Assembly: GCA_017303955.1 (NCBI GenBank)
Contig: JAFLBC010000021.1
Span: 1 to 15,809 of the forward strand
Length of the DNA: 15,809 nucleotides
Direction of reading: 5' to 3'
Origin: Acidobacteriota bacterium
GTDB taxonomy: Bacteria; Acidobacteriota; Blastocatellia; Chloracidobacteriales; JADJPF01
Part shown: one piece after another, positions 1 to 15,809 of the stretch
Numbering within the stretch: position 1 is the stretch's first letter
Layout of the letters: each line of letters opens with the position of its first letter
Position numbers and translations under genes: made by a program
Notes under the pieces: model-generated
Told to the model about the DNA's origin: nothing
Databases searched by the model: none
What the model saw: only the letters and a program-made list of their open reading frames with translations

Positions 1-82
1 TTTTTGATTTTATTTTTGATTTTATTTTTAACTTAATTCTTAAAATAATTCTAGGCTTAATTCTTTAAGCTAAGGCTTCTTT

Positions 83-1114
83 TTACTTTTTTTCGCTATT
101 TATTAAAAACTGGGTACGAATCAGAACGGGAGATAAATTTTCATCTAACAAATAAAATTTTGTGTTAGCAATAGATTCTCCAATAAATGGATGCTCCCAA
201 GTTGAATTGCAGCAAATCAGACTACTACAAACTGTTGCTTCTGTTGGGCCATAAACATTAACTACACGAAGTTTTTTAGCCCATTGTCTAACTGTAGCAG
301 GTGGACAAACTTCCCCACCAATAATAATTGTCTCTAAACATTTTGGAATATTATTAATATCTAAAACTCTTAGCAGTGAAGGAGGTAAATCAATATGTGT
401 AATTTGTCGTCCCGCCAACAATTTCCAAAACTCTTTTTCAATCAATAGTTTATCAGTAGGCTCTATATAAATTGCCGCGCCTGATAATAAACTTGTACCA
501 ATGTCAGAAATAGCCGCGTCAAAGCTAGTTGAAAGATAAAATAAAGATCTACTTTTAGAAGTAAGCTGAAAAACAGGAATTTGGGCATTGATAAAATTAA
601 CTATTCCACTATGTTCAACCATAACGCCTTTAGGATTACCGGTTGAGCCTGATGTATAAATTACATAAGCAAGATCATTTTTATAAATACTAGGTAAAAC
701 TACACCGCTAACTTGATTAGTTGCTAGTATTTCTTGGTAATCAATAGCTTTAACATCTAGTTCATCAAACAAATGAAGATATGTTTTACAGGTAATAATA
801 ATTTTCGGTTCAGCTTCTTGGACAATAAAAGTTAGACGGTTTTTTGGTAATCCAGGGTCAAGCGGCAAAAATGCTGCATTAGCAAACCAAACTCCTAGCA
901 TTGTTGTAATGTAAGCAGCAGATTTATCTAGGCAAATTCCAATTATTGAATCTTTTTTTAAGTCTATGGATTTTAAGTAGTTACCAATTTTTGCAGCCTT
1001 GTTATAAAGTTCTAAATAAGTAGTTTTAGCTGTGTCATTTTCTACAACAGCATCATTATTTGGATAAAGAGAAACAATTTTTGCAAAGCAGCTAAGAAAA
1101 TCTAAGAAAACCAT
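83..1114 (-). CDS. AMP-binding (adenylation-domain) enzyme, C-terminally truncated; probable gene remnant or pseudogene
   Basis: 343-aa ORF. Core A-domain motifs are present: YTSGSTGNPKGV (A3/AMP-binding signature) and NVYGPTEATV (A5). The ORF stops about 55 aa after A5, just before where the A6 (GELxIGG) to A10 motifs would lie. It terminates LIRTQFLINSEKK, which diverges from the conserved PVPxGVxGEL region. The downstream 82 nt (1-82) are low-complexity AT repeats with no continuation in any frame. The start ATG (1112-1114) overlaps the upstream amidotransferase stop (TAATG). Confidence 0.6.
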   Translation of the reverse strand: MVFLDFLSCFAKIVSLYPNNDAVVENDTAKTTYLELYNKAAKIGNYLKSIDLKKDSIIGICLDKSAAYITTMLGVWFANAAFLPLDPGLPKNRLTFIVQEAEPKIIITCKTYLHLFDELDVKAIDYQEILATNQVSGVVLPSIYKNDLAYVIYTSGSTGNPKGVMVEHSGIVNFINAQIPVFQLTSKSRSLFYLSTSFDAAISDIGTSLLSGAAIYIEPTDKLLIEKEFWKLLAGRQITHIDLPPSLLRVLDINNIPKCLETIIIGGEVCPPATVRQWAKKLRVVNVYGPTEATVCSSLICCNSTWEHPFIGESIANTKFYLLDENLSPVLIRTQFLINSEKK

Positions 1115-3009
1115 TAGAGCTTAAACCCCTGATGAATAAAAAATGTTGTTAGAACAGTAAAAAGCACTGGATCAAAGGCTGATTTATCAGTTGTTGACAT
1201 TTTAGGTAATTGTTTTAGCAGATTGATAACCTTTTTTTGATTAAAAAAAGGCACATTGGCAAAACTTTGGCTATGGATAATGTCTTGAACAAAATTATTA
1301 ATTTCTGGGCTAGAAAAACAACTAATTGGGGGTGCTGTAAATGGTCGTTTTTCTCTTAAATAAATAGTTTTTGTAATTAATGGTCGCAAAGCTTCACGCA
1401 AAATATATTTTTCCACCGAACCTTTAATTTTTAGCGACATTGGCAGACTTCGAGCAAATTCAAAAAGCTTATGATCTAGAAAAGGAACTCGGCCTTCAAT
1501 AGAATTAGCCATTTCCGTTCCATCGCCTAATGTATGCAAAATATAATTTGCTAAACAAAGCTTTGACCAAAGATAAGAAGATTGGTTAACTCTATGGCGT
1601 GATTTTAATTGTCCTACAATATCAATATTAGCTAGAAAGTCTTGATAGCAATCAACCCTGCTAAATTGTTGAATAAAATTTTCAGACAAGATTTTTCTAA
1701 TTCGGTGTCCATAAGTTCCTTTTGCAGCTAAAAAAGCAGGAATAAAACCTAAGTTATTTTTAACCGTATCTAGCGGTAAAGACTCACCATAGGCTAGTTG
1801 AATGCCGGCTAGCTCGCTGTTGCTAGAGAAAAGTTTGTCAAAATTTTGATTTTCTAGGGAAAAAAGGTCTTGGCGTAGGTGTGGATAGCCAGCTAAAACT
1901 TCGTCTGAACCTTCACCCGTTAGCACTACCTTAAAACCTGCTTGGCGGATGGTTTTGCTTAAAATAAATTTTGCGGTCAAATGACCGTTAATTGCTAAAC
2001 CTTCGCTATAAAAAGTGGCTTCAGCCAAATGGGTAATTAAATCTTGCTGTGAGACAAATATAGGATTAAATGAAGCACCAGCAAACTTAGCCATTTCTTG
2101 AGCAATTGCAAATTCATCATAAAGTTCTTCTGCAAAGCTTACGCTATAACACTCAATAGGCTTATTGCTATATTGCATCGCTTGAGCTAAAACAGCACTG
2201 GAATCAAGACCACCGCTTAAGTAGCAACAAAACTCGACATCAGCCCTTAAACGTAGTCTAACCGCCTCTTGAAAATGGTGCTTAAATTCTTCTATTAAAC
2301 ATAATTCATTGTCTTGTCTATAGTTTCCATCAACAGGATAGTCTAAATCCCAATAACGATTGATTTTTACACCATTGCTATTAGCTAAAAGGTAATGTCC
2401 TGGAGGTAGTTGACGAATATTTGCAAAAAGTGTTCGGTCTTGAGGTAAATATTGCAAATTAGCAGCATGAAAATAGCTGTAATAATCCCAATTAGCTTCT
2501 AGCCCCATTGCAAAGAGGGCTTTAGCCTTTGAAGCAAGATAAAGTGTGTTATTTTGGTTGCTATAGCAAAGAGGTTTGATTCCAAAACGATCTCTAGCGG
2601 CAAAAAGCAATTGTTTTTTTTCGTCCCAAAGAATAAAAGCAAATTCGCCTCTTAAATAATTTAAGCAGCTAACTCCATATTTTGTATATAAATGTAGCAA
2701 AATTTCGCTATCTGTTTGAGTTTGAAACTTGTAGCCTTGATTTTCTAAATCTACTCGAATTTCTTCAAACCTATAAAACTCACCATTTACAACTATATAA
2801 ATTGTTTTATCTAAATTAGTTATGGGTTGTGTACCTGTATGTAAATCAATAATACTTAAGCGGGTATGACCTAGAGTAACAAGTTTATTTTTTGATTGCC
2901 AATAATTATTTGCATCCGGGCCACGATTATAAAGAGATGATAAAGCTTTGTTTATAGCATTGTTATCTATTGAGTTTGAGGTCGAAAAAATACCAACTAT
3001 TCCACACAT
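1114..3009 (-). CDS. asnB: Asparagine synthetase (glutamine-hydrolysing), class-II glutamine amidotransferase, AsnB-like
   Basis: 631-aa ORF. The N-terminus is MCGIVGIF, with the catalytic Cys2 of the Ntn glutaminase domain. A PP-loop ATP-pyrophosphatase motif (CYLSGGLDSSAVLA) is present in the synthetase domain. Both the length and the domain order fit AsnB. The C-terminus is about 80 aa longer than E. coli AsnB, as in pathway-dedicated AsnB homologues. Confidence 0.85.
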   Translation of the reverse strand: MCGIVGIFSTSNSIDNNAINKALSSLYNRGPDANNYWQSKNKLVTLGHTRLSIIDLHTGTQPITNLDKTIYIVVNGEFYRFEEIRVDLENQGYKFQTQTDSEILLHLYTKYGVSCLNYLRGEFAFILWDEKKQLLFAARDRFGIKPLCYSNQNNTLYLASKAKALFAMGLEANWDYYSYFHAANLQYLPQDRTLFANIRQLPPGHYLLANSNGVKINRYWDLDYPVDGNYRQDNELCLIEEFKHHFQEAVRLRLRADVEFCCYLSGGLDSSAVLAQAMQYSNKPIECYSVSFAEELYDEFAIAQEMAKFAGASFNPIFVSQQDLITHLAEATFYSEGLAINGHLTAKFILSKTIRQAGFKVVLTGEGSDEVLAGYPHLRQDLFSLENQNFDKLFSSNSELAGIQLAYGESLPLDTVKNNLGFIPAFLAAKGTYGHRIRKILSENFIQQFSRVDCYQDFLANIDIVGQLKSRHRVNQSSYLWSKLCLANYILHTLGDGTEMANSIEGRVPFLDHKLFEFARSLPMSLKIKGSVEKYILREALRPLITKTIYLREKRPFTAPPISCFSSPEINNFVQDIIHSQSFANVPFFNQKKVINLLKQLPKMSTTDKSAFDPVLFTVLTTFFIHQGFKL

Positions 3010-3053
3010 ATTTTTTGAGCAAAAGTTTTATAAAGTAGGCAAACTTAGATTTC

Positions 3054-3359
3054 TTATTCTTCTTCAGTAGTTTTGTTGTGATAAGCTTCACGAAAATGTA
3101 AAACATTTACGCTATCGTCACCTACAAGAAAAAGAATTCTGTAACGTTGGAAAATAATTTGTCTTATCTCAATATAAAATTCTTCGCTCTCAGGGGCTAA
3201 GGGATGGCGATTTGGAAACGTTTCAAGTTTGGCTATTTCTTTCATTAGGCTGTTAAACCACTTTTGAGCTTGTTTAGCTCCCCATTTTTCGCAACCCCAA
3301 TAATAAGCCCTATCTATTTCCTCTCTAGCTGGCTTTTCTATTACTACTTGGTATTTCAT
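3054..3359 (-). CDS. parE: Type II toxin, ParE/RelE superfamily (ParE-like)
   Basis: 101 aa. The N-terminus MKYQVVIEKPAREEIDRAYYW matches the ParE pattern MxYxVxFSxxAxxDLxxIxxY. The C-terminus RYRILFLVGDDSVNVLHFREAYH matches the ParE consensus YRIxYRVEDDxVxILRVxH. It lies immediately downstream of, and overlaps, a Phd/YefM-like gene. Confidence 0.7.
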   Translation of the reverse strand: MKYQVVIEKPAREEIDRAYYWGCEKWGAKQAQKWFNSLMKEIAKLETFPNRHPLAPESEEFYIEIRQIIFQRYRILFLVGDDSVNVLHFREAYHNKTTEEE

Positions 3360-3660
3360 TTTCTACCTCTTCATTTGTAGTAAAGTTGTGTTTTTGACGA
3401 AACTCTGCTGCAAAATCTTCTAGCTTTTGTCCTTCACCTCTTTTAATTGAGTCTAACCCTTGTTTAATAGCAGCAATGGCCTCCATGCGATCTTTAAGCA
3501 TGATAAGTTCTTCATAGCTTTCTGCATCTTGCACAACCAAAGCAGCTTTTCCATTTACTGTTAAGATTAGAGGTTCTTTTGTTTCTTGCATTTGCTTTAA
3601 GAGTTTTGTTGTGTTGCGTTTAAACTCACTTAAACTTTGTATATCTCTTGTTAGTTTCAT
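3325..3660 (-). CDS. Type II antitoxin, Phd/YefM family
   Basis: The start was reassigned to the ATG at 3658-3660 (MKLTRD...), which sits 8 nt downstream of an AAGGA Shine-Dalgarno sequence. The upstream Met codons of the 3325..3723 ORF lack an RBS. IQSLSEFKRNTTKLLKQMQETKEPLILTVNGKAALVVQDAESYEEL aligns with YefM ([48 protein letters not shown]). GLDSIKRGEG aligns with SIDSLKSGKG. The gene overlaps the toxin start by 35 nt. Confidence 0.7.
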   Translation of the reverse strand: MKLTRDIQSLSEFKRNTTKLLKQMQETKEPLILTVNGKAALVVQDAESYEELIMLKDRMEAIAAIKQGLDSIKRGEGQKLEDFAAEFRQKHNFTTNEEVENEIPSSNRKAS

Positions 3661-3775
3661 ACATAATCCTTGCATTAAATTTAATCTTAATTTGATGTTA
3701 CTAATAAATTCTTTCTTTTGCAAAAATTTTTCTAGGAAGGAAGAAATTTAGGGAAATAAGTCATTTTAATCAACA

Positions 3776-4711
3776 CTAATTAGACAAAGAGAAAAAGCGT
3801 TTTAGTAATTCGTTTTCAGCAGATAAATTAAAAGCTTCTTTGAAGTCTTCTAGCTTGTAAACTTTGCCAAACATTGAAGTAAAATCAACTTCGTTATTTG
3901 TTATTAGTGCAATTGCTTCATCAAACAAGCCATAATTTACAGCTTGAAATGTAATTTCTTTTTTAATTGCAGCAATAAAATCTATAGCAACGGCTTGATA
4001 TTGACGGCTTTTAAGAATTATTTTTCCTCTATGTTTAACTAAATCAATCATTTCTGATAAAGTTTTACTAGTAGCTAGAGTTTCAATTACATAATCATAA
4101 GAATTAGCCTTTAAACTTACTAAATTGTTATTTGGATCAAAGGTTTGAGTATTTTGAAAACCTTTAGCTTGTAATATTTTTTTTATTAGAAGTGAAATTC
4201 TATTTTCTCCATAAATTAACCCTTTTTGCTTGGGGTTTATATCACCTTTTAATACTGCTAATGCTGCTGCAATAGGCTCGCAATAAGCTGCTAATGGAAA
4301 GGGAATATTGTCATTTATTGGATAAACTGATTCTTTGGGAACAATAATAAACTCTGCAAATGCTCCATTTAGGTCAATTCCTAGCATTTTTGTTGATAAG
4401 CAATTATTGGAATTGTTAGCTAGACATTCTTGGCACGTTTTACAAGCAATTACTGGCATTACTGCTACGCGATCACCTATTTTAAGGTGAGTAACATTTT
4501 TTCCTAATGCTTCCACTATTCCAGAAAATTCATGACCTGGAATAACAGGATCTTGGCTTTTAATGCTGCCTTGAGCAACATAAATATCTGTGCGGCAAAT
4601 TCCTGCTATGACTACTCGAATTAACACATCATCATCTGATTGAATTGTAGGATTAGGCCATGTTTTTATGGTTAAATTTTTTCCTTCTTTGACTAAAGCT
4701 TTCATAGACAA
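3776..4711 (-). CDS. Zinc-dependent medium-chain alcohol dehydrogenase (MDR superfamily), atypical cofactor-binding motif
   Basis: 311 aa. Catalytic Zn ligands are present: Cys in AGICRTD and His-Glu in GHEFSGIV. The structural Zn site is CKTCQECLANNSNNC (C-x2-C-x2-C-x7-C). The Rossmann GxGxxG position reads GLIYGENRISLL, which is degenerate. Confidence 0.75.
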   Translation of the reverse strand: MSMKALVKEGKNLTIKTWPNPTIQSDDDVLIRVVIAGICRTDIYVAQGSIKSQDPVIPGHEFSGIVEALGKNVTHLKIGDRVAVMPVIACKTCQECLANNSNNCLSTKMLGIDLNGAFAEFIIVPKESVYPINDNIPFPLAAYCEPIAAALAVLKGDINPKQKGLIYGENRISLLIKKILQAKGFQNTQTFDPNNNLVSLKANSYDYVIETLATSKTLSEMIDLVKHRGKIILKSRQYQAVAIDFIAAIKKEITFQAVNYGLFDEAIALITNNEVDFTSMFGKVYKLEDFKEAFNLSAENELLKRFFSLSN

Positions 4712-4844: not shown

Positions 4845-5609
4845 ATGACACAACCAATAAAAAAAGATGAGTGGTGGAAGCCTTTTTATGACGAGTTTTT
4901 TGTTAATCTTTTAACTTTGTGGAAAGACCAAGCAGAAATTGATTTAACCGTCTCTTTTTTAATTAAAGAACTAGGCTTAAAACCAGAAATGACAGTTTTT
5001 GATCAATGCTGTGGGGTTGGAAGCCTTAGTCTACCGCTAGCTAAACAAGGAATAAATATTATAGGCGTAGATTTAAGCCCTGACTTTATTAATAAAGCTA
5101 AATCTCAAACAAATGAAAATGCCCAATTTTATTGTGATGATGCTTTTAAGTTTATTCCCTTAAAACTTTGTGACGCAGCTTTTAATTGGCATACTAGTTT
5201 TGGCTATTCTGAGTTGGATAAAGAAAATATTTTAATGCTAAAAAATGCTTTTGCTTCACTAAAACCTGGGGGAAAATTTATTTTAGATTATCCAAACATG
5301 GCTTGTACCCTAAAAAACTTTGAACGCTCTATGATTAGGCATATTGATAGCAAAGAAGGCGAAATTTTACTTGTTCGTGAAAGTGAAATAAATTTGGCTA
5401 CAGGAATGCTTGAACAACTTTGGACAATTTGTTTGCCAACAGGAAAACAACTAAAAAAACAAAGCTTTGTAAAAATTTATTTACCACATGCACTAACAGA
5501 TATGTTAAAAGAATGTGGTTTTTGTAGGGTAGATATTTATAGCAATGTACTAGGAGAACCACTAAGCTTAAATACTCCTCGTTGTATTTATAAAGCAACT
5601 AAACCTTAG
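4845..5609 (+). CDS. Class I SAM-dependent methyltransferase
   Basis: 254 aa. Motif I is VFDQCCGVGSLSLPLA (D-x-G-x-G-x-G). The post-I motif is IIGVDLSPDFI, motif II is FYCDDAFKF, and motif III is LKPGGKFIL. Confidence 0.75.
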   Translation: MTQPIKKDEWWKPFYDEFFVNLLTLWKDQAEIDLTVSFLIKELGLKPEMTVFDQCCGVGSLSLPLAKQGINIIGVDLSPDFINKAKSQTNENAQFYCDDAFKFIPLKLCDAAFNWHTSFGYSELDKENILMLKNAFASLKPGGKFILDYPNMACTLKNFERSMIRHIDSKEGEILLVRESEINLATGMLEQLWTICLPTGKQLKKQSFVKIYLPHALTDMLKECGFCRVDIYSNVLGEPLSLNTPRCIYKATKP

Positions 5610-5623
5610 TAAATAAATAAATT

Positions 5624-6478
5624 ATGAATAAAATAAAAAAAATATTACCTCAAGATAGCAAACTAAAAGATAGCAAACTAACTAGAAAGCAAATTTATCA
5701 AGGCGAGGTTCTTTGTTTTCCTGCTACAGATGTTTCTAAACAGCTTGTAAGCGATGTATTAGCATTATTAAAAGAGGAGTTAGGCGAAGATGTTCGTACA
5801 GCACAATTTAGATTTTCTGATGAAGAATTTTTTGAGCATATTGGAAAATTAAGAAAAATAATTTATACCCAAACATATTTTCATGATTTAGCTAAAAAAC
5901 TACTAGTTGAACTTAAGTTTATTCCAAATGAAAATGCTTTTGAACCTATTAGACTACGGGTAATTACTCATAAAGGACATGAAAATCCTAAAGCAGCACC
6001 TATTTATTATGCTCATCGGGATACTTGGTATTCGCACTCGCAAGCATTAATTACTTGGTGGATACCTTTGCATGATTTAAGAGAAGAAGAAACCTTTGTA
6101 TTTTTTCCAGAATATTTTAATCATCCAGTAAAAAATGGCTCACAGCATTTTGATTATGACGAATGGATGCTAGATAAACGCCAATTAACAGTTGGATGGC
6201 AGGACAAAAACGCAGGTAGGGAAGCTTTTTATCCCTCTTTAATGGAAGAAATAAGTGACAGTCAAAAAGTAGGCTTTTCTGCTAAAGCAGGAGAAATAAT
6301 TCTGTTTTCTGGGTCATGTCTTCATCAAACGCTTAATAATTTATCAGGAATGACCCGTTTTAGCTTAGATTTTCGTACTGTAGATCTTACAGATCATAAT
6401 GAAAATATTGGCGCACCAAATGTTGATAATCTTTCTCGGGGTTCGGCAATGAGACAATATATCTACCCAAGTAATTAA
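5624..6478 (+). CDS. Putative Fe(II)/2-oxoglutarate-dependent dioxygenase, PhyH-like (phytanoyl-CoA dioxygenase family)
   Basis: 284 aa. YAHRDTWYSH fits the PhyH HxD facial-triad motif (xHxDxxY/W). The distal LHQTLNNLSGMTRFSLDFR fits H-x3-4-N-x2-S-x3-R, which is the second His plus the 2OG-binding Arg of PhyH/EctD-type enzymes. It lies 14 nt downstream of the methyltransferase gene. Confidence 0.45.
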   Translation: MNKIKKILPQDSKLKDSKLTRKQIYQGEVLCFPATDVSKQLVSDVLALLKEELGEDVRTAQFRFSDEEFFEHIGKLRKIIYTQTYFHDLAKKLLVELKFIPNENAFEPIRLRVITHKGHENPKAAPIYYAHRDTWYSHSQALITWWIPLHDLREEETFVFFPEYFNHPVKNGSQHFDYDEWMLDKRQLTVGWQDKNAGREAFYPSLMEEISDSQKVGFSAKAGEIILFSGSCLHQTLNNLSGMTRFSLDFRTVDLTDHNENIGAPNVDNLSRGSAMRQYIYPSN

Positions 6479-6509: not shown

Positions 6510-8363
6510 ATGGCAAAAGATTTTACTATTCGTCGATCTGATGGCACAGAAATAAAAGTTGCTGGCTATAAATTTGCGGCCCCAAATCCTAATGTTAAAA
6601 AATATGCTGGAAAAAAATATGGGGATTCAGAACTTCCTGCCAAAGTAGATTTACGTGAATATATGACTAAAGTAGAAAACCAGGGTAACACTAGTAGTTG
6701 TGTTGCAAATGCTGTAGCAGGTGCTTACGAATATTTAGTTAAACGCTATAAGGGTAAAAACTCATATGATGTAAGTAGGCTTTTTATTTACTATAATGCG
6801 CGTAAATTACAAGGTTGGGAAAATCAAGACGAAGGTTCTTTTATTGCTGATGCTGTAGAAGGGTTAAAAAAATGGGGTGCTTGTTCAGAAGACACTTGGC
6901 CGTTTGATGAAGATATAGTCAATAAAAAACCGGCAGAAAAAGCCTACAAAGAAGCAAAGAATTTTTTAGTAGAAGATGTAAAACTTGTTCCGCTTACCCT
7001 TCATGATTGGAAACATGCTTTAGCAGAAGGTAATCCAATTATTTTTGGTATTTCACTTTATGAATCTTTTGACTCACACAGAAGAAAAGGTCTTGTTCCA
7101 ATGCCGTCCAAAAAGGAAGCATCCCGTGAAGATCATGGAGGGCATGCAATGCTTTGTGTGGGCTATTCTGATGCTGATAGAACTTTTATTGTCCGTAATT
7201 CCTGGGGTAGAAGTTGGGGAGATAAAGGTTATTGCTATATTCCTTATGATTATCTAATTAATGAAAAATTTAATGATGCTGATAGCTGGATTATTAAGCG
7301 ATTAGATAATTTTCCTGATGGAGATCAAGAAGGTTGGGGAGAAGAAGAAAGTGTTATAGAAGAATCTAATACAGAATTCTCCAAAATGACAGATGAAGAA
7401 TACACAGATATGCTTGATGCAATGGGGCCATATCATATTGAATATCGGGTAGCACTGGTTTTAATGCGCGTAATGGGTATAAATAAATCTACTACTCCAG
7501 CTAAATTACAAGAACTAATTACTTCTGTAGACAAACTTCTTACTCAGCTAGGAATTAATGTAAATGCAGAAAAATTAGTTATGAACAGTCTTAATAATGT
7601 TGATAATAATGATTTATTGCGTGAATCCATTGGGCTGCTAGCAAAATATCTGTCTCAAACTATTTTATCTCAACTTAGTGCTGGAACGTTAATCGCTCAA
7701 TTAGGTTTAAGTCAATCTACACATGATTTAATTAAATATGGTTTATCAGAATTAGGAGGCGATTCTTTAATAACAAGTGCTATGGATTGGTTAGGGAATA
7801 TGTTTTCTGATAGCGTTGTAAAAGAAAATAAACAACTTAATACAAATACTAATTCTAGTTCTGATAATACTGATAGTTCTGCTAGCTTGGATGAAACGTC
7901 TGAAGATGAAGTAGAAAGTGAAGATGAAGATATAAGCGAAGATTCTGATGAGGACGAAGAATACGAAGATGATGATGGTGATGATGATGATGGTGATGAT
8001 GATGATGGTGATGATGACGAAGAGGAATATGAAGAAGACGACGATGATGGCGATGATGATGGTGATGACGAGGAAGACGAGGAAGAGGAATATGAAGACG
8101 ATGATGGCGATGATGACGATGATGATGGTGAGGATGAAGAAGACGACGATGATGGCGATGATGGCGATGATGGCGATGATGACGATGATGATGGCGACGA
8201 GGAAGACGACGAGGAAGACGACGAGGAAGACGACGAAGAAGACGACGATGATGGCGATGATGATGACGATGATGATGGCGATGATGATGGCGATGATGAT
8301 GGCGATGAAGAGGAAGAAGAAAAACCAAGTAAGAATAGCAACAGAAAAAAGAGTAGGTGGTAA
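6510..8363 (+). CDS. Papain-family (C1A) cysteine peptidase with a C-terminal helical domain and about 160-residue poly-Asp/Glu tail; no signal peptide or I29 prodomain
   Basis: 617 aa. The oxyanion Gln and catalytic Cys are in ENQGNTSSCVANAVAG, with the same Q-to-C spacing as papain Q19/C25. The His and Asn are in DHGGHAMLCVGYSD...IVRNSWGRSWGDKGYCYIPYD, which matches the papain NSWGxxWGxxGY block. An AGGAG lies 15 nt upstream of the ATG. The N-terminal 45 aa are hydrophilic and are not a signal peptide. Residues about 450-600 are D/E/G/Y only and end KPSKNSNRKKSRW. Confidence 0.8.
   Translation: MAKDFTIRRSDGTEIKVAGYKFAAPNPNVKKYAGKKYGDSELPAKVDLREYMTKVENQGNTSSCVANAVAGAYEYLVKRYKGKNSYDVSRLFIYYNARKLQGWENQDEGSFIADAVEGLKKWGACSEDTWPFDEDIVNKKPAEKAYKEAKNFLVEDVKLVPLTLHDWKHALAEGNPIIFGISLYESFDSHRRKGLVPMPSKKEASREDHGGHAMLCVGYSDADRTFIVRNSWGRSWGDKGYCYIPYDYLINEKFNDADSWIIKRLDNFPDGDQEGWGEEESVIEESNTEFSKMTDEEYTDMLDAMGPYHIEYRVALVLMRVMGINKSTTPAKLQELITSVDKLLTQLGINVNAEKLVMNSLNNVDNNDLLRESIGLLAKYLSQTILSQLSAGTLIAQLGLSQSTHDLIKYGLSELGGDSLITSAMDWLGNMFSDSVVKENKQLNTNTNSSSDNTDSSASLDETSEDEVESEDEDISEDSDEDEEYEDDDGDDDDGDDDDGDDDEEEYEEDDDDGDDDGDDEEDEEEEYEDDDGDDDDDDGEDEEDDDDGDDGDDGDDDDDDGDEEDDEEDDEEDDEEDDDDGDDDDDDDGDDDGDDDGDEEEEEKPSKNSNRKKSRW
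7900..8330 (+). repeat. Cryptic GAT/GAC/GAA/GAG-rich coding microsatellite-like tract encoding the poly-acidic tail, with a recurring (EEYEDDDGDDDD) unit
   Basis: About 430 nt composed almost entirely of GAN codons with periodic GGC/GGT and TAT/TAC. The other five reading frames translate as poly-Ser, poly-His/Arg and poly-Met artefact ORFs. Confidence 0.8.
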
Positions 8364-9623: not shown

Positions 9624-11612
9624 ATGAAAAAAGATTCTTTATTGAAACATAAAAAATTAAATACTAATAAGCTTGCCTGGTATGAGTTTTCTATTGCAAC
9701 ACAACTTAGATATGGGTTAGCACTTTCGGTTGTGCTTAGTATATTAATAACAGGAGGATTTTTAATTTATTATAGTTTTCAAGTTCTTTTAAGAGAAACT
9801 AACAAATTGCAAAAAGAACATAGCCGGGTTGCAGCCGAGACAATTGATTCTTATATAGACGATCTTCAAAGAAAACTTAGTTATTTAGCACGTGTAAAGG
9901 GTTTAACCAATCTACCGCAAGCTGAAAAACAAAATCTGCTAGAAGCTTTAACCCGTCATAATGCAGCATATGAAATGGTGGCAATTCTTGATAGTCAAGG
10001 ACAAGTTTTAGCAACTATTTCACCTTATGGCACACCTACGCCAACTACTTTTGCTGATACCCAATTATTTTTACGTACTTTTAAGAAACAGGAAGAATAT
10101 GTTGAATATGTTAGCTTTGATAAGGATGTTAATCAGCTAGTTACTACTTTTGCTGTACCAATTCATAATTTAGAAGATAAAGTTGATGGAGTTCTTTTAG
10201 CAAAAGTTAATCTTAAATTCCTTAATTTTATTGTTTCCCAAACTGATGTAGGAAAAACAGGCTATGCCTATGTTGTAGATGAGAGAAACAAGTTAATTGC
10301 TAAACGTGGTAGTAGTCAAAGTGTATTTAATTTAGAAGATGTTTCAAATCTAGCATTTATTAAAGAACGCTCTATGCTACAAGCTAAATCCTTAAATGTT
10401 TATAAAGGGCTTAAAGGTGTAGAGGTTTTAGGGGCAATTGCTCCTGTTAGAAGTGTATCTTGGTTGGTTGTAGTTGAACTACCAACAATGGAAGCCTACC
10501 AACCTATTTATAATATGATACTTACAATGACGATTAGCTTAATGGTAATAATTATAGTAGTTATTATATTAGGTTTTCTTTTTTCTAAAAGAATTGTTTC
10601 ACCATTTCAACGTTTAACAATGGCTGCTGCACAAATTAGTGATGGAAACTTAAATATCCAAGTTAATATCAAAGCTAATAATGAGTTAGGAATCCTGTCA
10701 AAAGCTTTTAATGATATGGTCTTTCAATTAAAAGAATCTTTTGAAGCTTTAGAGAAAACTAACCAAACATTAGAAATTCGTGTACAAGAGCGAACAACAG
10801 AGCTAGAAGTAGCTAATAAGCAAATTTTAGAGCTTAACGAACGTCTTAAGGCTGATAATTTAAGAATGAGTGCGGAATTAGATGTAACAAGACAATTACA
10901 ACAGATGATTTTACCTAAAGAACAAGAACTAATCCAACTAGCAGATTTAGATATTGCAGGGTTTATGGAACCGGCTGATGAGGTTGGAGGGGATTATTAT
11001 GACGTTGTTAAACAAGGTAATAAAATTAGAATGGGTATAGGTGATGTTACTGGGCATGGTTTAGAAAGCGGGGTAGTTATGATAATGGCACAAACAGCAA
11101 TTCGTACCCTGCTAGCTAATGATGAGAAAGACCCTATTAAATTCTTAAATTCAGTAAATAAAGTAATTTATGATAATACTAGACGTATGAAAAGCCATAA
11201 AAACATGACGCTAGCATTGCTTGAATATGAAGAAGGAATGCTACGTCTTAGCGGACAACATGAAGATCTAGTGATTTTACGTAGTAATGGTGAAATAGAA
11301 CAAATAGACACTTTTGAGCTAGGTTTTCCCCTTGGTATTGAATCAGACATTAAAGCTTATGTAGCACAAACAGACATTAAACTAAATCCAGAAGAAATAG
11401 CTGTACTTTATACAGATGGCCTAATAGAGGCCGTAAATCAGCAAAATGAGATGTATGGTTTAAGTCGTTTATTTCAAGTAATAAAAGAAAGCTCTCATTT
11501 ATCAGCAAATCAAATATGTAGCCAAATAATTGAAAACTTAAAAAAACATGTTGGTAAACAAAAGGTATATGATGATATAACTTTGTTAGTTATAAAGCGT
11601 AAAAAAGCTTAA
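9624..11612 (+). CDS. Membrane sensor serine phosphatase: 2TM periplasmic Cache-like domain, HAMP, coiled coil, PP2C/SpoIIE domain (SiaA/RsbU-like)
   Basis: 662 aa. TM1 is at about aa 31-52 and TM2 at about aa 297-320 (ILTMTISLMVIIIVVIILGFLF), flanking a periplasmic domain of about 245 aa. HAMP is at about aa 321-372. The PP2C motifs are DIAGFMEPADEVGGDYYD, GIGDVTGHGLESG and YTDGLIEA. Confidence 0.8.
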   Translation: MKKDSLLKHKKLNTNKLAWYEFSIATQLRYGLALSVVLSILITGGFLIYYSFQVLLRETNKLQKEHSRVAAETIDSYIDDLQRKLSYLARVKGLTNLPQAEKQNLLEALTRHNAAYEMVAILDSQGQVLATISPYGTPTPTTFADTQLFLRTFKKQEEYVEYVSFDKDVNQLVTTFAVPIHNLEDKVDGVLLAKVNLKFLNFIVSQTDVGKTGYAYVVDERNKLIAKRGSSQSVFNLEDVSNLAFIKERSMLQAKSLNVYKGLKGVEVLGAIAPVRSVSWLVVVELPTMEAYQPIYNMILTMTISLMVIIIVVIILGFLFSKRIVSPFQRLTMAAAQISDGNLNIQVNIKANNELGILSKAFNDMVFQLKESFEALEKTNQTLEIRVQERTTELEVANKQILELNERLKADNLRMSAELDVTRQLQQMILPKEQELIQLADLDIAGFMEPADEVGGDYYDVVKQGNKIRMGIGDVTGHGLESGVVMIMAQTAIRTLLANDEKDPIKFLNSVNKVIYDNTRRMKSHKNMTLALLEYEEGMLRLSGQHEDLVILRSNGEIEQIDTFELGFPLGIESDIKAYVAQTDIKLNPEEIAVLYTDGLIEAVNQQNEMYGLSRLFQVIKESSHLSANQICSQIIENLKKHVGKQKVYDDITLLVIKRKKA

Positions 11613-11638
11613 TTATTTTTAAGAAAGATGGAAAGATT

Positions 11639-12223
11639 ATGGAAGTAAATACAGAGATTTTTGGAGATTATTACGGTCAAGACTCAGATTCTCAGGAATA
11701 TTTAATCATAAACTTTTCGCCTAGTTCTATCCCTCGTAATAGCCGTTGGCGCAATAATGGAATATCGGCTGACTTTTTAGGAGATTATTTTGCTACTTTT
11801 TTTCCAGGTGATGAAATTCCTGGCTCTAAAATAGGTAAACAAGAAACAATAAAAAGTTCTGTTAGTTTTATTGCTAATGAGCTTTTAGAAAATGCAATGA
11901 AATATAGTTTGGTCAATACTAACTTACCAGTAAGTATTGCACTGTATATGTATAATGAAAAAATAGTCTTTATGGTGACAAATCATATTAGTTTAGAATC
12001 ATCAGAGAACTATAAAACTTATATTAAAGAGCTACTTAGCTCTGACATGGATGAAATGTTTACTAAACAGTTAATAAAAGCAAGCTCAGAAGGTAATAGT
12101 TCAGGAATTGGGCTACTTACAATAATTAATGATTATGGAGCAAAACCAGGCTGGAAATTTGAAAAATTGCTTAATCCAGTAGATGTGGTTAAACTAACAA
12201 TTACTATTCAGTTAGAGGTGTAA
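11639..12223 (+). CDS. Small GHKL-fold (HATPase-like) serine/threonine kinase of partner-switching systems (SiaB/RsbW-like)
   Basis: 194 aa. An N-box-like ANELLENAMKY and a G2-like NSSGIGLLTIIN are present. It lies 26 nt after the PP2C gene and 7 nt before a DUF1987-like gene. The family assignment rests on motif-level inference. Confidence 0.5.
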   Translation: MEVNTEIFGDYYGQDSDSQEYLIINFSPSSIPRNSRWRNNGISADFLGDYFATFFPGDEIPGSKIGKQETIKSSVSFIANELLENAMKYSLVNTNLPVSIALYMYNEKIVFMVTNHISLESSENYKTYIKELLSSDMDEMFTKQLIKASSEGNSSGIGLLTIINDYGAKPGWKFEKLLNPVDVVKLTITIQLEV

Positions 12224-12230
12224 AAAGCTT

Positions 12231-12572
12231 ATGGAGATTAAGACAGCAGATTATTATGTTCGCTATGATGAAAACTTAGCTACTATCTTTTTTGGTGGGT
12301 TTCTTAGATTAGAAGGTGTGGACGCTTACAAAGAAATACTAGATTTATGTGTTAATGTATTTGATAAACAAAAGCAAATATCTATGAATCTTACAGATCT
12401 ACAATTTCTTAATAGCTCTGGTATTAGTATGTTTTCTATGTTTGTATTAAAAATACGTGATCTTGGAGATGCTAAACTAACTATACAAGGGTCAGAGAAA
12501 ATTTTATGGCAAACAAAATCACTAAAAAACTTAAAACGCTTAATGCCTAGTATGACACTAGAATTTATCTAA
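12231..12572 (+). CDS. DUF1987/SiaC-like phospho-switch protein (STAS-like partner-switching component)
   Basis: 113 aa. A GAGGTG Shine-Dalgarno sequence lies 10 nt upstream. TIFFGGFLRLEGVDAYKEILDLC fits the DUF1987 N-terminal pattern (tLeisGeSyPEnaxefYxPvlewl). LQFLNSSGISMFSMF fits the phosphosite region YxNTSSxK of SiaC (Thr68 in P. aeruginosa). A conserved Trp lies near the C-terminus (ILWQTK). Confidence 0.55.
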   Translation: MEIKTADYYVRYDENLATIFFGGFLRLEGVDAYKEILDLCVNVFDKQKQISMNLTDLQFLNSSGISMFSMFVLKIRDLGDAKLTIQGSEKILWQTKSLKNLKRLMPSMTLEFI

Positions 12573-12577
12573 ATTTT

Positions 12578-14254
12578 ATGAGTACATTTGACAACCCTAC
12601 AGGTCAAGACCTTAAGCTATTAGAGCAAATAGAAGTATTAAATAAAGAATTAGCATTGCTAAGAAAAACTAACCAAGATCTCCAAATTCAATTAGAAATG
12701 ACAATTGAACATGGGGATGCAGTCGAAGACCAACTTCATAGTGAGATCCAAGAACGTCATCGCGCAGAAGCAGCACTCCAATCAATCCTAGAAATAGTCT
12801 CAAAAAAAAATATGGATCTTGAAATTATTCTTGAAACTACAGCAGAGCATGGCGATCTTATAGAAAATGAATTACGCAAAACTAGTGAAGCTAAAACGGC
12901 CTTTTTATCAAACTTAAGCCATGAATTACGTAGCCCACTTAATACGATTATTGGATTTGCTCAATTAATGAGCCGAGATAAATATCTTAAACAAGAACAC
13001 CATGAGACTTTACACACCATAATGCGTAGCGGGGAACATTTGCTTAATTTAATAAATGATGTGCTTTCTTTAGCAAAAATTGAGTCTGGAAAACTAACTT
13101 TAAGCAAGCGTCTTTTTAATACCAAAGAGCTACTTAGCAGTATTTATAATATGTTTAGGCTAAGAGCAGAAACAAAAGCCACAGAATTAAAATTTGATAT
13201 ATCTGAGAAATTTCCAACATTTGTTTTTGGCGATGAGGGCAAATTACAGCAAGTGCTGATAAATTTGCTCTCTAATGCTATTAAATTTACTGATCAAGGT
13301 AGTGTAAATCTTTTAGCAGATTGGACTAATGGACAAGCTAAATTTACAATTTCTGATACTGGAATTGGAATAGCAGAACAAGACATAGATTCAATGTTTT
13401 TACCTTTTTTTCAAACTGAAACAGCAAGCAAAATAACTGGTAGCACTGGTCTTGGCCTAGCTATTAGCCGTAGTTTAGTTAAGTTAATGGGTGGAGATAT
13501 AAATGTTACTAGTAGCATTGGTAAGGGGACAACATTTTCTTTTAGCGTTGAAATTACTCCATCCCCAGAAGATGAAAATCTAATGGATGAACGCAAAGTC
13601 TTAAGACTAGCAGACGATAGCCACAAATTTAATATTTTAGTTGTAGATAACAACTTAGAACATCAGCTTTTGCTATCTCAATTACTAAAATCAGTTAATT
13701 TTCAAGTTGATGTGGCTGATAATGGAAAACAGGCTTTTGATAAATGGCAAAATAATAAATTCCATCTAATTTTTATGGATATCCGAATGCCTGAACTAAA
13801 CGGAGTTGAAACAACTAAGTTAATTCGTGATAGAGAAAAAGCTAAAAATTTACCTCCTATGCCAATCATCGCGCTTTCTGCTAATGTATTTGAGCAGACT
13901 AGAGACACAATGTTTTCAGCCGGATGTAATGATTTTATAAATAAACCTTTTAGAGAAAGTGAGCTTTTTAATAAATTAGCAGAATACTTAGACGTAACTT
14001 ATATTTATGAAGAGCTAAAAGGAAAATCTGGTAAAGAAAAAATACTAATTAAAGAAAGACTACTTAAATTGCCTAAAGAATGGCTAGATAATTTTCGATC
14101 TATGCTAGCAAAAGGTTTTGTAGAAGATGCTAAAGCTTTAGTTAACCAAGAGCGTAGTTTAGACCCAGAATTATTTGATGAACTAGAAACTTTGCTTAAA
14201 AACTACCAATTTGATGAAATTGATAGTATTCTTTCAGATAACTACACTAGCTAA
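12578..14254 (+). CDS. Cytoplasmic hybrid sensor histidine kinase (coiled-coil N-terminus, HisKA, HATPase_c, receiver domain, conserved-looking C-terminal extension)
   Basis: 558 aa with no TM segment and no recognisable sensor domain. The H-box is LSNLSHELRSPLNTI, the N-box LINLLSNAIKFT, G1 ISDTGIGI, and G2 GSTGLGLAISRSLVKLMGG. The receiver is ILVVDNN...FMDIRMPELNG...IIALSA. A tail of about 100 aa (LPKEWLDNFRSMLAKGF...) follows the receiver. Confidence 0.85.
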   Translation: MSTFDNPTGQDLKLLEQIEVLNKELALLRKTNQDLQIQLEMTIEHGDAVEDQLHSEIQERHRAEAALQSILEIVSKKNMDLEIILETTAEHGDLIENELRKTSEAKTAFLSNLSHELRSPLNTIIGFAQLMSRDKYLKQEHHETLHTIMRSGEHLLNLINDVLSLAKIESGKLTLSKRLFNTKELLSSIYNMFRLRAETKATELKFDISEKFPTFVFGDEGKLQQVLINLLSNAIKFTDQGSVNLLADWTNGQAKFTISDTGIGIAEQDIDSMFLPFFQTETASKITGSTGLGLAISRSLVKLMGGDINVTSSIGKGTTFSFSVEITPSPEDENLMDERKVLRLADDSHKFNILVVDNNLEHQLLLSQLLKSVNFQVDVADNGKQAFDKWQNNKFHLIFMDIRMPELNGVETTKLIRDREKAKNLPPMPIIALSANVFEQTRDTMFSAGCNDFINKPFRESELFNKLAEYLDVTYIYEELKGKSGKEKILIKERLLKLPKEWLDNFRSMLAKGFVEDAKALVNQERSLDPELFDELETLLKNYQFDEIDSILSDNYTS

Positions 14255-14270
14255 ATGTTAGGAATTAAGG

Positions 14271-15809
14271 ATGGATCAAAAACGCTGGGAACAAATTAAA
14301 ACAATTCTTGATATAGCTTTAGAAAAAGATTCCTACTTGGTTGGGCCATATCTTGACAGAGTTTGTGCAGGTGATAGCAGTTTACGTACTGATGTAGAGT
14401 CTTTTATAAAAATGTTTGAAGAAACAAAAGAAAGCAACTCAAATAAACTAATAAATAACATTCCTTCTTATTTACCAAATCTAATAGAAACTACTAAAGA
14501 TCAAAGTCTCAGAACTTCTAATTACAGTGAAAACCAAACAACAAATATAGATTTAAGTGAAATAAATAAAGCTTCTAAAGGAACTATTTTAGTAGTAGAT
14601 GATTTGCCTAATAACTTAAATTTACTATCAGGATTGCTTTCTATGGAAAATTATCAGGTTAGTGTGGCAAATAATGGTCGTCGAGCATTAAAAATAGTTG
14701 AGACTCTTTCCCCAGATTTAATATTACTTGATATAAATATGCCTGAAATGGATGGTTATGAGCTTTGTACTTTATTAAAAGCTAATCCAAAAACTTCTGG
14801 TATCCCTGTTATATTTATAAGTGCTTTGGATGAAGTGCTAGACAAGGTTAAAGCTTTTGAAGTCGGCGGAGTTGATTACATAACTAAACCTTTTCAAACT
14901 AAAGAAGTTATAGCTCGTGTTGAAAATCAGTTAAAAATATTTCGTCTTCAACAAGAATTGCAAAAAAATATTGAAGAATTAGCTAAGAAAAATCAAGAAT
15001 TAGCTGAAAAAAATCAAGAATTGATTGAGTCTTATAGAAAAGCAAATCATATATTTACAGTTCTAGCTCAAGCTTTGCCAGGCACTATATTAGATGACAA
15101 ATACAAACTAGAAGAAAAAATTGGTTCAGGTGGCTTTGGTGCTGTTTATCGTGCTACTCATATTCCTATGAAACGTGCAGTTGCAGTAAAAGTCTTTAGG
15201 CCAAGTTTAGGAAATGACTCTATTAGTGAGCTTGAACGGTTTCAAAGAGAAGCTATTTCTATTTGTCGTGTTAATCATCCTAATGCTGTAAATGTCTTTG
15301 ATTCTGGCATTTCCTCACAAGGTATAGCTTATATTGTGATGGAACTACTTACAGGACATACTTTAGTTAAAGAATTAAAAGAAAAAACAGTAATTTCTTT
15401 ACGTCGTTGTGCTGAAATTTTACTCCCTATTTGTGAAGTTCTTTCTAAAGCACATTCTGAAGGTATAATTCACCGAGATATCAAGCCCGATAATGTGTTT
15501 TTACATCAAACTACTTTAGGTGAAGTAATTAAAGTAATAGATTTTGGGATAGCTAAATTAATTAAAGAAACACCAAGCTTAAAATTTAGTGATTTAACGG
15601 CTGTAGAAGGTTTTATAGGCACTCCTAATTATATGGCACCTGAGAGAATTCAAAATGTTGACTATGATGGAAAAGCAGATGTTTATAGTTTAGGAGTTAT
15701 GCTTTATGAAATGTTAGGAGGCCGGCGACCTTTTTCATCTAGTATAGGTAGTTCCTTTGGCGTTCTTTCACAACACTTAAATGAAATTCCTCCATCAATT
15801 AAACTGCTT
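14271..15809 (+). CDS. Receiver-domain/Hanks-type Ser/Thr protein kinase fusion, 3'-partial (runs off window end in frame)
   Basis: The ATG at 14271 is preceded by AAGGA. The N-terminus is RWEQIKTILDIALEK...LDRVCAGDSSLRTDVESF. The receiver is ILVVDDLPNNL...LLDINMPEMDG...IFISA. A coiled coil follows, then kinase subdomains IGSGGFGAVYRA, AVAVKVF (Lys), IHRDIKPDNVFL, DFGIAKL and GTPNYMAPE. There is no stop codon through 15809 (513 codons). Confidence 0.8.
   Translation, partial: MDQKRWEQIKTILDIALEKDSYLVGPYLDRVCAGDSSLRTDVESFIKMFEETKESNSNKLINNIPSYLPNLIETTKDQSLRTSNYSENQTTNIDLSEINKASKGTILVVDDLPNNLNLLSGLLSMENYQVSVANNGRRALKIVETLSPDLILLDINMPEMDGYELCTLLKANPKTSGIPVIFISALDEVLDKVKAFEVGGVDYITKPFQTKEVIARVENQLKIFRLQQELQKNIEELAKKNQELAEKNQELIESYRKANHIFTVLAQALPGTILDDKYKLEEKIGSGGFGAVYRATHIPMKRAVAVKVFRPSLGNDSISELERFQREAISICRVNHPNAVNVFDSGISSQGIAYIVMELLTGHTLVKELKEKTVISLRRCAEILLPICEVLSKAHSEGIIHRDIKPDNVFLHQTTLGEVIKVIDFGIAKLIKETPSLKFSDLTAVEGFIGTPNYMAPERIQNVDYDGKADVYSLGVMLYEMLGGRRPFSSSIGSSFGVLSQHLNEIPPSIKLL

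Follow-up and report, generated by a model that had tools for sequence, protein, structure and literature searches.

The locus

The stretch of DNA analysed here (the window, meaning all 15,809 nucleotides (nt), with position 1 as the first letter) belongs to a contig of an Acidobacteriota bacterium (JAFLBC010000021.1). Its left part carries, on the minus strand, an intact gene of 631 amino acids (aa; 1114..3009) for an AsnB-like class II glutamine amidotransferase, i.e. an acyl-adenylate-forming amide synthetase, and next to it a 343-aa open reading frame (ORF; 83..1114) with the beginning of an adenylation domain. We propose that this short ORF is very probably the first third of a thioester reductase gene that was split in this strain by an insertion sequence (IS), and that both genes belong to a biosynthetic cassette found in bacteria of several phyla. 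An earlier reading of the same letters, made without database searches (the sequence-only reading), had described the two genes as a translationally coupled, amide-forming pair left over from a partly eroded cluster. The overlap that it noticed is real: the plus strand reads cCATTAg at 1112-1116, the ATG occupying 1114..1112 and the TAA 1116..1114, with base 1114 common to both (TAATG).

The comparison with intact homologous loci that the sequence-only reading had suggested could be made. A scan of genome contigs with the AsnB-like protein retrieved a contig (L004) of a sibling metagenome-assembled genome (MAG), with 93% aa identity and the same gene order, and three more intact loci serve as references, L005 (96% nucleotide identity to the window) and L014 and L015 (95-97%). 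All four keep the same one-base TAATG overlap. The taxonomic labels of the sibling MAGs conflict (Acidobacteria/Blastocatellia versus "uncultured Clostridia" for L004), and their GC content is about 33%.

Interruption of the reductase gene

The adenylation ORF does stop before motif A6, as had been said. It matches the Pfam AMP-binding profile over positions 5-364 of 384 and the amino-acid adenylation profile TIGR01733 over 1-315 of 409 (under the cutoff), and it contains motifs A3 (YTSGSTGNPKG), A4 (FDAAISD) and A5 (NVYGPTE). Motifs A6-A10, including the A10 lysine, are missing from it, and the displaced copies of them that the sequence-only reading thought possible were found in none of the frames of bases 1-260. 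In the four intact loci the near-identical alleles are 992-996 aa long (995 aa in L004), TIGR01733 covers 1-409 of 409 with 360 bits (above the cutoff), and a single polypeptide carries an adenylation domain, a PP-binding (peptidyl carrier protein) domain and a TIGR01746 thioester reductase domain (A-PCP-R), a set that the window ORF lacks. The partner of the AsnB-like gene is thus not a plain adenylation enzyme feeding an amide synthetase, as first supposed, but an A-PCP-R thioester reductase, from which release of an aldehyde or alcohol is expected.

BLASTN homology between the window and each of the four intact loci breaks off at window position 125, after codon 330 (LSPV). The empty site reads ...TCTCCCGTT followed by AATGAAGTAGG, whereas the window reads ...TCTCCCGTT followed by CTGATTCGTACC. 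Past the break, the intact alleles thus run on with AATGAAGTAGG (also given as AATGAAGTAGGAAAAAAGGG), which encodes NEVGKKGELYISG, i.e. motif A6, and the window with CTGATTCGTACCCAG.... The 343-aa ORF is therefore a chimera: codons 1-330 (1114..125), with motifs A1-A5, make up the 5' third of the A-PCP-R gene, and codons 331-343 with the stop (124..83) are IS-derived, the last 13 codons (LIRTQFLINSEKK) being read from the inserted element and having no origin in an adenylation domain. The break lies within the large adenylation subdomain, between A5 and A6, where there is no domain boundary.

The foreign sequence (1..124, minus strand) is the left end of an IS4-family IS whose remainder lies beyond position 1. 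The window contains no further copy of it, only chance AT-rich matches, and an exact search of public metagenome contigs with its first 29 bases returned three further contigs, L007 (IS at 13624-13750), L008 (49-1362, a complete copy) and L009 (1-234). The window agrees with L008 49-172 at 124 of 124 positions, all copies being 100% identical over these 124 nt, and in the window and the three contigs the IS end abuts four differing flanks (CCCGTT, CAGGAG, GGCTTC and ATAGAT). Read as its reverse complement, window 110-124 gives the terminal inverted repeat, CTGATTCGTAcccag. The complete element in L008 measures 1314 bp and has inverted ends, CTGATTCGTA... and ...TACGAATCAG (the right end is also written ...CTGTCTACGAATCAG or ...AAAATCTGTCTACGAATCAG); its repeats, CTGATTCGTAcCCAGtTTTT at 49 and CTGATTCGTAgACAGaTTTT as the reverse complement of the end at 1362, match at 10 of 10 positions at the tips and at 17 of the first 20. 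It encodes a 357-aa transposase with a Pfam DDE_Tnp_1 match (25 bits, cutoff 23), whose best and only NCBIfam match is the IS4-family model NF033591 (93 bits, below the cutoff of 152).

Just inside its left inverted repeat the element has AAAATCAAAAAT repeated in tandem, four to five times. This array occupies window positions 1-29, a second 12-nt array follows at 24-65, and the region is AT-rich; what had been taken for AT-rich repeat junk is this subterminal array of an IS end. The window, L007 and L001 (a contig of the Logan assembly) all end in the 12-mer array or just ahead of it, and since the element is multi-copy and carries such an array, window position 1 is probably a contig end. 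As a separate observation, the other IS copies lie in two JGI contigs of metagenome Ga0268299 and one ENA contig, 100% identical over the shared part, and Ga0268299 also contains an intact, IS-free locus (L014).

What became of the rest of the gene bears directly on the erosion proposed earlier, namely that the 3' two-thirds were deleted long ago in a decaying cluster. That the ORF lacks A6-A10 and runs into AT-rich sequence of non-coding appearance would fit such a history. However, the sequence after the break is an IS end, and the missing part persists. A protein cluster that holds an intact 992-aa protein also holds P0244 (MBN8725786.1), a 594-aa "thioester reductase domain-containing protein" from a 56.6-kb contig of an "Acidobacteria bacterium" MAG, which spans residues 399-992 (from Met399 to the natural C-terminus) with its frame intact to the natural stop and shares 96.8% identity with the L014 protein. 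The 343-aa protein is deposited as MBN8725299.1, from a 104-kb contig of a MAG of the same name, 487 accessions away, and from this numbering and these names we conclude that the two very probably come from one MAG. Persistence of residues 399-992 means that the gene was split without deletion. Moreover, the 330 retained codons contain no stop and no frameshift, and the substitutions specific to the window lineage (7 synonymous, 10 non-synonymous) resemble those of the intact L005 lineage (7 and 8), which, although the numbers are small, gives no signal of relaxed selection in the fragment and no excess of non-synonymous changes. All other cassette genes of the window are full length. We therefore consider old deletion or erosion very improbable: the sequence-only reading saw rightly that the cluster is damaged, a gene being interrupted, but the damage is one clean insertion rather than decay. 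From the substitution counts and the undamaged frame, the insertion looks recent.

An assembly chimera, in which the gene was falsely joined to an IS end with no insertion at this place, would be a natural worry, the junction lying at most 124 nt from a likely contig end and beside a multi-copy repeat. Yet L001, from a different assembly, matches the window over 7906 nt with a single mismatch and has the identical junction, extending 28 nt into the IS, which argues against a chimera. The gene's 3' half, moreover, is annotated on another contig that begins close to the break, as would be expected of a real insertion and not of a chimera. We rate this explanation as slightly less probable still than erosion.

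Lastly, homologues of the 343-aa protein could have defined a natural short family, an outcome that the sequence-only reading itself named as fatal to its view, with a stand-alone N-terminal protein of about 310-345 aa and a separately encoded C-terminal part. In one homologue search several of the best matches were indeed 303-324 aa long, and L002 has a 313-aa ORF overlapping a 650-aa ORF with A6-A10, PCP and R. That search, however, omitted full-length proteins of 92-93% identity and was thereby biased towards short sequences, and its remaining short matches are on short contigs or out of frame. The L002 split (10925-10945; ENA ERZ25039521 contig_17957) is a one-nucleotide frameshift in a run of five G, past which homology goes on in the other frame; it probably reflects a homopolymer error in long reads or a genuine pseudogene, and its location a few codons from the IS position is a consequence of the same search bias, so that we discarded it as an example of a naturally split adenylation domain. 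With the C-terminal two-thirds as query there were 2165 homologues at E<1e-30, and among the 120 listed nearly every one measures 930-1150 aa; the family is about 1000 aa. Given these lengths, a break that is not at a domain boundary, and an IS junction facing intact alleles at 95-97% nucleotide identity, the short family is refuted at this locus and is the least credible of the three alternatives. Among other relatives, contig L010 begins inside the A-PCP-R gene, and a close allele, P0241/P0243 (MBK7996581.1/MBK7996580.1, Blastocatellia MAG), is annotated as pieces of 903 aa and 85 aa, with a frameshift near the 3' end.

We thus favour, with a probability of roughly 90%, the view that in this strain an IS4-family element of 1314 bp split the 992-codon A-PCP-R gene between codons 330 and 331. 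The upstream frame runs 13 codons into the IS before meeting a stop, giving the 343-aa ORF, and the 3' part would survive elsewhere in the assembly with no start codon ahead of Met399, so that the A-PCP-R enzyme would be inactive and the downstream NadR-like gene uncoupled. Several points weigh against this interpretation. No target-site duplication is visible at L008, the sole complete copy; the right-hand junction between IS and gene is one that we infer, the window ending inside the IS; the common origin of the two proteins is deduced from accession numbering and names; and the insertion may exist in just a part of the population.

The cassette and its conservation

The AsnB-like gene is intact, and the claim that the protein has kept its motifs, namely Cys2 and the PP-loop, is correct. 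It matches Pfam GATase_7 (8e-41) and Asn_synthase (4e-71) and NCBIfam TIGR01536 (428.9 bits, cutoff 267), its PDB matches are 1CT9 (1e-45) and 7YLZ (2e-45), and its MCGIVG start (Cys2), its PP-loop (YLSGGLDSS) and its GEGSDE motif (within LTGEGSDEV) align with E. coli AsnB. Homologues are 629-641 aa long (97% identity to P0252, 93% to L004). Six cassette copies, 43-97% identical to the window protein, keep every catalytic motif, with C2, R50, N75-G76-E77, D100, S265-G-G-x-D-S270 and G365-E-G-x-D-E370 invariant.

This gene does not stand alone. A cassette of six genes, for a Zn-dependent alcohol dehydrogenase (ADH), the AsnB-like protein, an S-adenosylmethionine (SAM)-dependent methyltransferase, a PhyH-like oxygenase, the A-PCP-R protein and a NadR-like nucleotidyltransferase/kinase or AAA_28 enzyme, is found in the lineage of the window, in an Obscuribacterales MAG (L006) and in an Alphaproteobacteria MAG (L012/13, where an AAA_28 domain is fused to the reductase). 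The MAGs concerned are labelled Blastocatellia/Acidobacteria, Obscuribacterales/Melainabacteria and Alphaproteobacteria. A further host, L002, is a 1-Mb contig that also has a SidC_N gene and in which a PhyH-family gene occurs only at the edge of the locus, non-adjacent; in L011 the cassette is partly conserved. Archangium has just an oxygenase homologue, the reductase and AAA_28, the AsnB-like gene being absent, and these three look like the core of the cassette.

Synteny of the AsnB-like and reductase genes therefore extends over at least four lineages of different taxonomic labels. In addition, 34 of the 73 top AsnB-like matches on contigs of at least 9 kb pair with a reductase match on a contig of equal size, a count that draws on the best 120 reductase matches and is an indirect lower bound of co-occurrence on one contig. 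Both observations agree with the dedicated-pathway association proposed earlier and, on gene order, the AsnB-like gene is pathway-associated, without a free-standing position. The tight pairing is another matter: direct adjacency with TAATG holds in this lineage only, and elsewhere a methyltransferase gene, usually with the oxygenase gene, comes between the two (both in L006 and L012/13, the methyltransferase in L002).

The other members of the cassette lie to the right in the window. The gene for the Zn-dependent medium-chain ADH (3776..4711, minus strand; Pfam ADH_N 5e-31) immediately precedes the AsnB-like gene in L002, L004, L006, L012 and L014. In the window a 759-bp segment (3023..3781, minus strand) separates the two; it carries a Phd/ParE module (Phd 3325..3723, Pfam PhdYeFM_antitox; ParE 3054..3359, Pfam ParE_toxin) that is missing in L004, L014 and L015, where the gap is about 8 bp. 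Judging from this comparison, the module is, like the IS, an insertion specific to this strain, the second one in the cassette. The class I SAM-dependent methyltransferase gene (4845..5609, plus strand; Pfam Methyltransf_31/25) is divergent here and lies inside the cassette in L002, L006 and L012. The PhyH-like Fe(II)/2-oxoglutarate oxygenase (5624..6478, plus strand; Pfam PhyH 1.9e-5), a core member, has an HxD...H triad, and we accordingly read it as a hydroxylase and not as a halogenase; it is 39% identical (E 8e-78) to a 290-aa protein adjoining the Archangium A-PCP-R gene. No functionally informative match came from PDB sequence searches with either the methyltransferase or the PhyH-like protein. 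The NadR-like protein scores 297 bits with TIGR01526, below the cutoff of 341. Next to its gene, on the downstream side, intact relatives have a radical SAM gene of the ArsS type (TIGR04167, 413 bits, arsenosugar biosynthesis; L004 10860-11834, L014 13290-14264) that has no counterpart in L006 and L012.

What the cassette makes can be proposed from its enzymes. We derived by hand, from the anchors A4, LPP, GGE and YGPTE, the specificity code D-A-S-D-I-G-V-V-C-(K) for the adenylation domain; we checked the anchors against the GrsA code, DAWTIAAICK, and the derived code is presumably nearest to codes of the Gln/Glu/Lys type. The adenylation domain would then activate a polar amino acid (predicted code DASDIGVVCK), the reductase domain would release it as an amino aldehyde and the ADH would reduce this to the alcohol. 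The AsnB-like enzyme would convert a carboxylate into a carboxamide by way of an acyl-adenylate, taking the ammonia from glutamine. The methyltransferase and the oxygenase would tailor the product, and the NadR-like enzyme would phosphorylate or nucleotidylate it; in this strain the pathway would be blocked at the reductase step. It is possible, and we suggest it tentatively, as something rather short of a settled view, that the cassette encodes a widespread pathway not described before, leading to a small metabolite derived from an amino acid; this product would be amidated, methylated and hydroxylated, and perhaps also phosphorylated or linked to a nucleotide. A full-text literature search found no description of the cassette, which does not prove that none exists. 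Two things speak against the scheme: no characterised homologous cluster was found, and the chemistry is deduced, with a code derived by hand using motif anchors taken from GrsA.

Two groups of genes lie beyond the cassette in the window. A papain-family (C1) cysteine peptidase gene (6510-8363, plus strand), whose product is kept at 621-622 aa in L004 and L014, ends in a C-terminal tail of about 130 residues, nearly all Asp or Glu, the acidic stretch (about 7863-8348) being at the DNA level a long GAT/GAC/GAA repeat. A signalling block (9624-15809, plus strand) follows, encoding a SiaA-like dCache-HAMP-SpoIIE phosphatase, a member of the slr1658 family, a product of 113 aa, a hybrid histidine kinase and, cut off by the window's right end, a receiver/Ser-Thr-kinase fusion.

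Implications

For annotation, the two deposited proteins, an "AMP-binding protein" of 343 aa and a "thioester reductase domain-containing protein" of 594 aa, appear to be two halves of one IS-disrupted gene; to count them as two enzymes, or to define a short adenylation family by them, would be a mistake. More generally, a multi-copy IS with internal tandem repeats breaks short-read assemblies and so produces apparent truncations at contig ends.

As an event, the IS insertion is nothing unusual. More interest attaches to the conserved cassette, which seems to be uncharacterised and in which, across distant phyla, a nonribosomal-peptide-synthetase-like reductase goes together with an AsnB-like amidotransferase and a NadR-like enzyme; it would lend itself to heterologous expression. 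Together with its intact relatives (95-97% identity), the IS-disrupted strain forms a natural mutant/wild-type pair and, if our reading of the cassette is true, strains such as this one are natural knock-outs.

Comparison with known systems

The inserted element resembles the IS4 family in having one ORF, for a DDE transposase, in its size of about 1.3 kb, in its terminal inverted repeats and in its identical copies at unrelated sites. It differs in its distant transposase (23-27% identical to annotated IS4 transposases in tblastn), in an NCBIfam score below the cutoff and in its subterminal 12-mer array.

The intact A-PCP-R alleles have the stand-alone architecture of the MxcG terminal module, AusA, the alpha-aminoadipate reductase Lys2 and carboxylic acid reductases. 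In NCBIfam they align best with MxcG (492 bits) and AusA (431 bits), scores that fall far short of the equivalog cutoffs (2300 and 2500). Unlike the known reductases, they have no condensation domain and always adjoin a NadR-like gene, and some relatives have a C-terminal AAA_28 fusion.

The AsnB-like protein can be compared with two groups. Beta-lactam synthetases and CarA have in common with it the superfamily fold and ATP-dependent amide bond formation; they have lost the N-terminal Cys and the glutaminase activity. The window protein, in contrast, keeps Cys2 and the glutaminase residues, and its CarA match is weak (E 8.7e-12), so we rejected the beta-lactam-synthetase role that the sequence-only reading had considered. 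With E. coli AsnB, the hydroxyamidotransferase TsnB9 and AsnO (the N-acetylglutaminylglutamine amide (NAGGN) amidotransferase) it shares the N-terminal nucleophile (Ntn) Cys, the R/N-G-E/D glutaminase residues, the PP-loop and GEGSDE. It differs from E. coli AsnB in a C-terminus about 80 aa longer and in a gene located within a biosynthetic cassette instead of standing alone. Its TIGR01536 score above the cutoff would suit a housekeeping asparagine synthetase B, which makes Asn from Asp, but the conserved cassette around its gene speaks for a pathway role. The E. coli AsnB stretch DVTTIRAST, which presumably contains residues of the aspartate site, aligns with AINGHLT in the window protein; this is only a hint, at the level of the alignment, that the acceptor may differ from aspartate. 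If our reading of the cassette is true, the AsnB-like protein would be a new amidotransferase subfamily.

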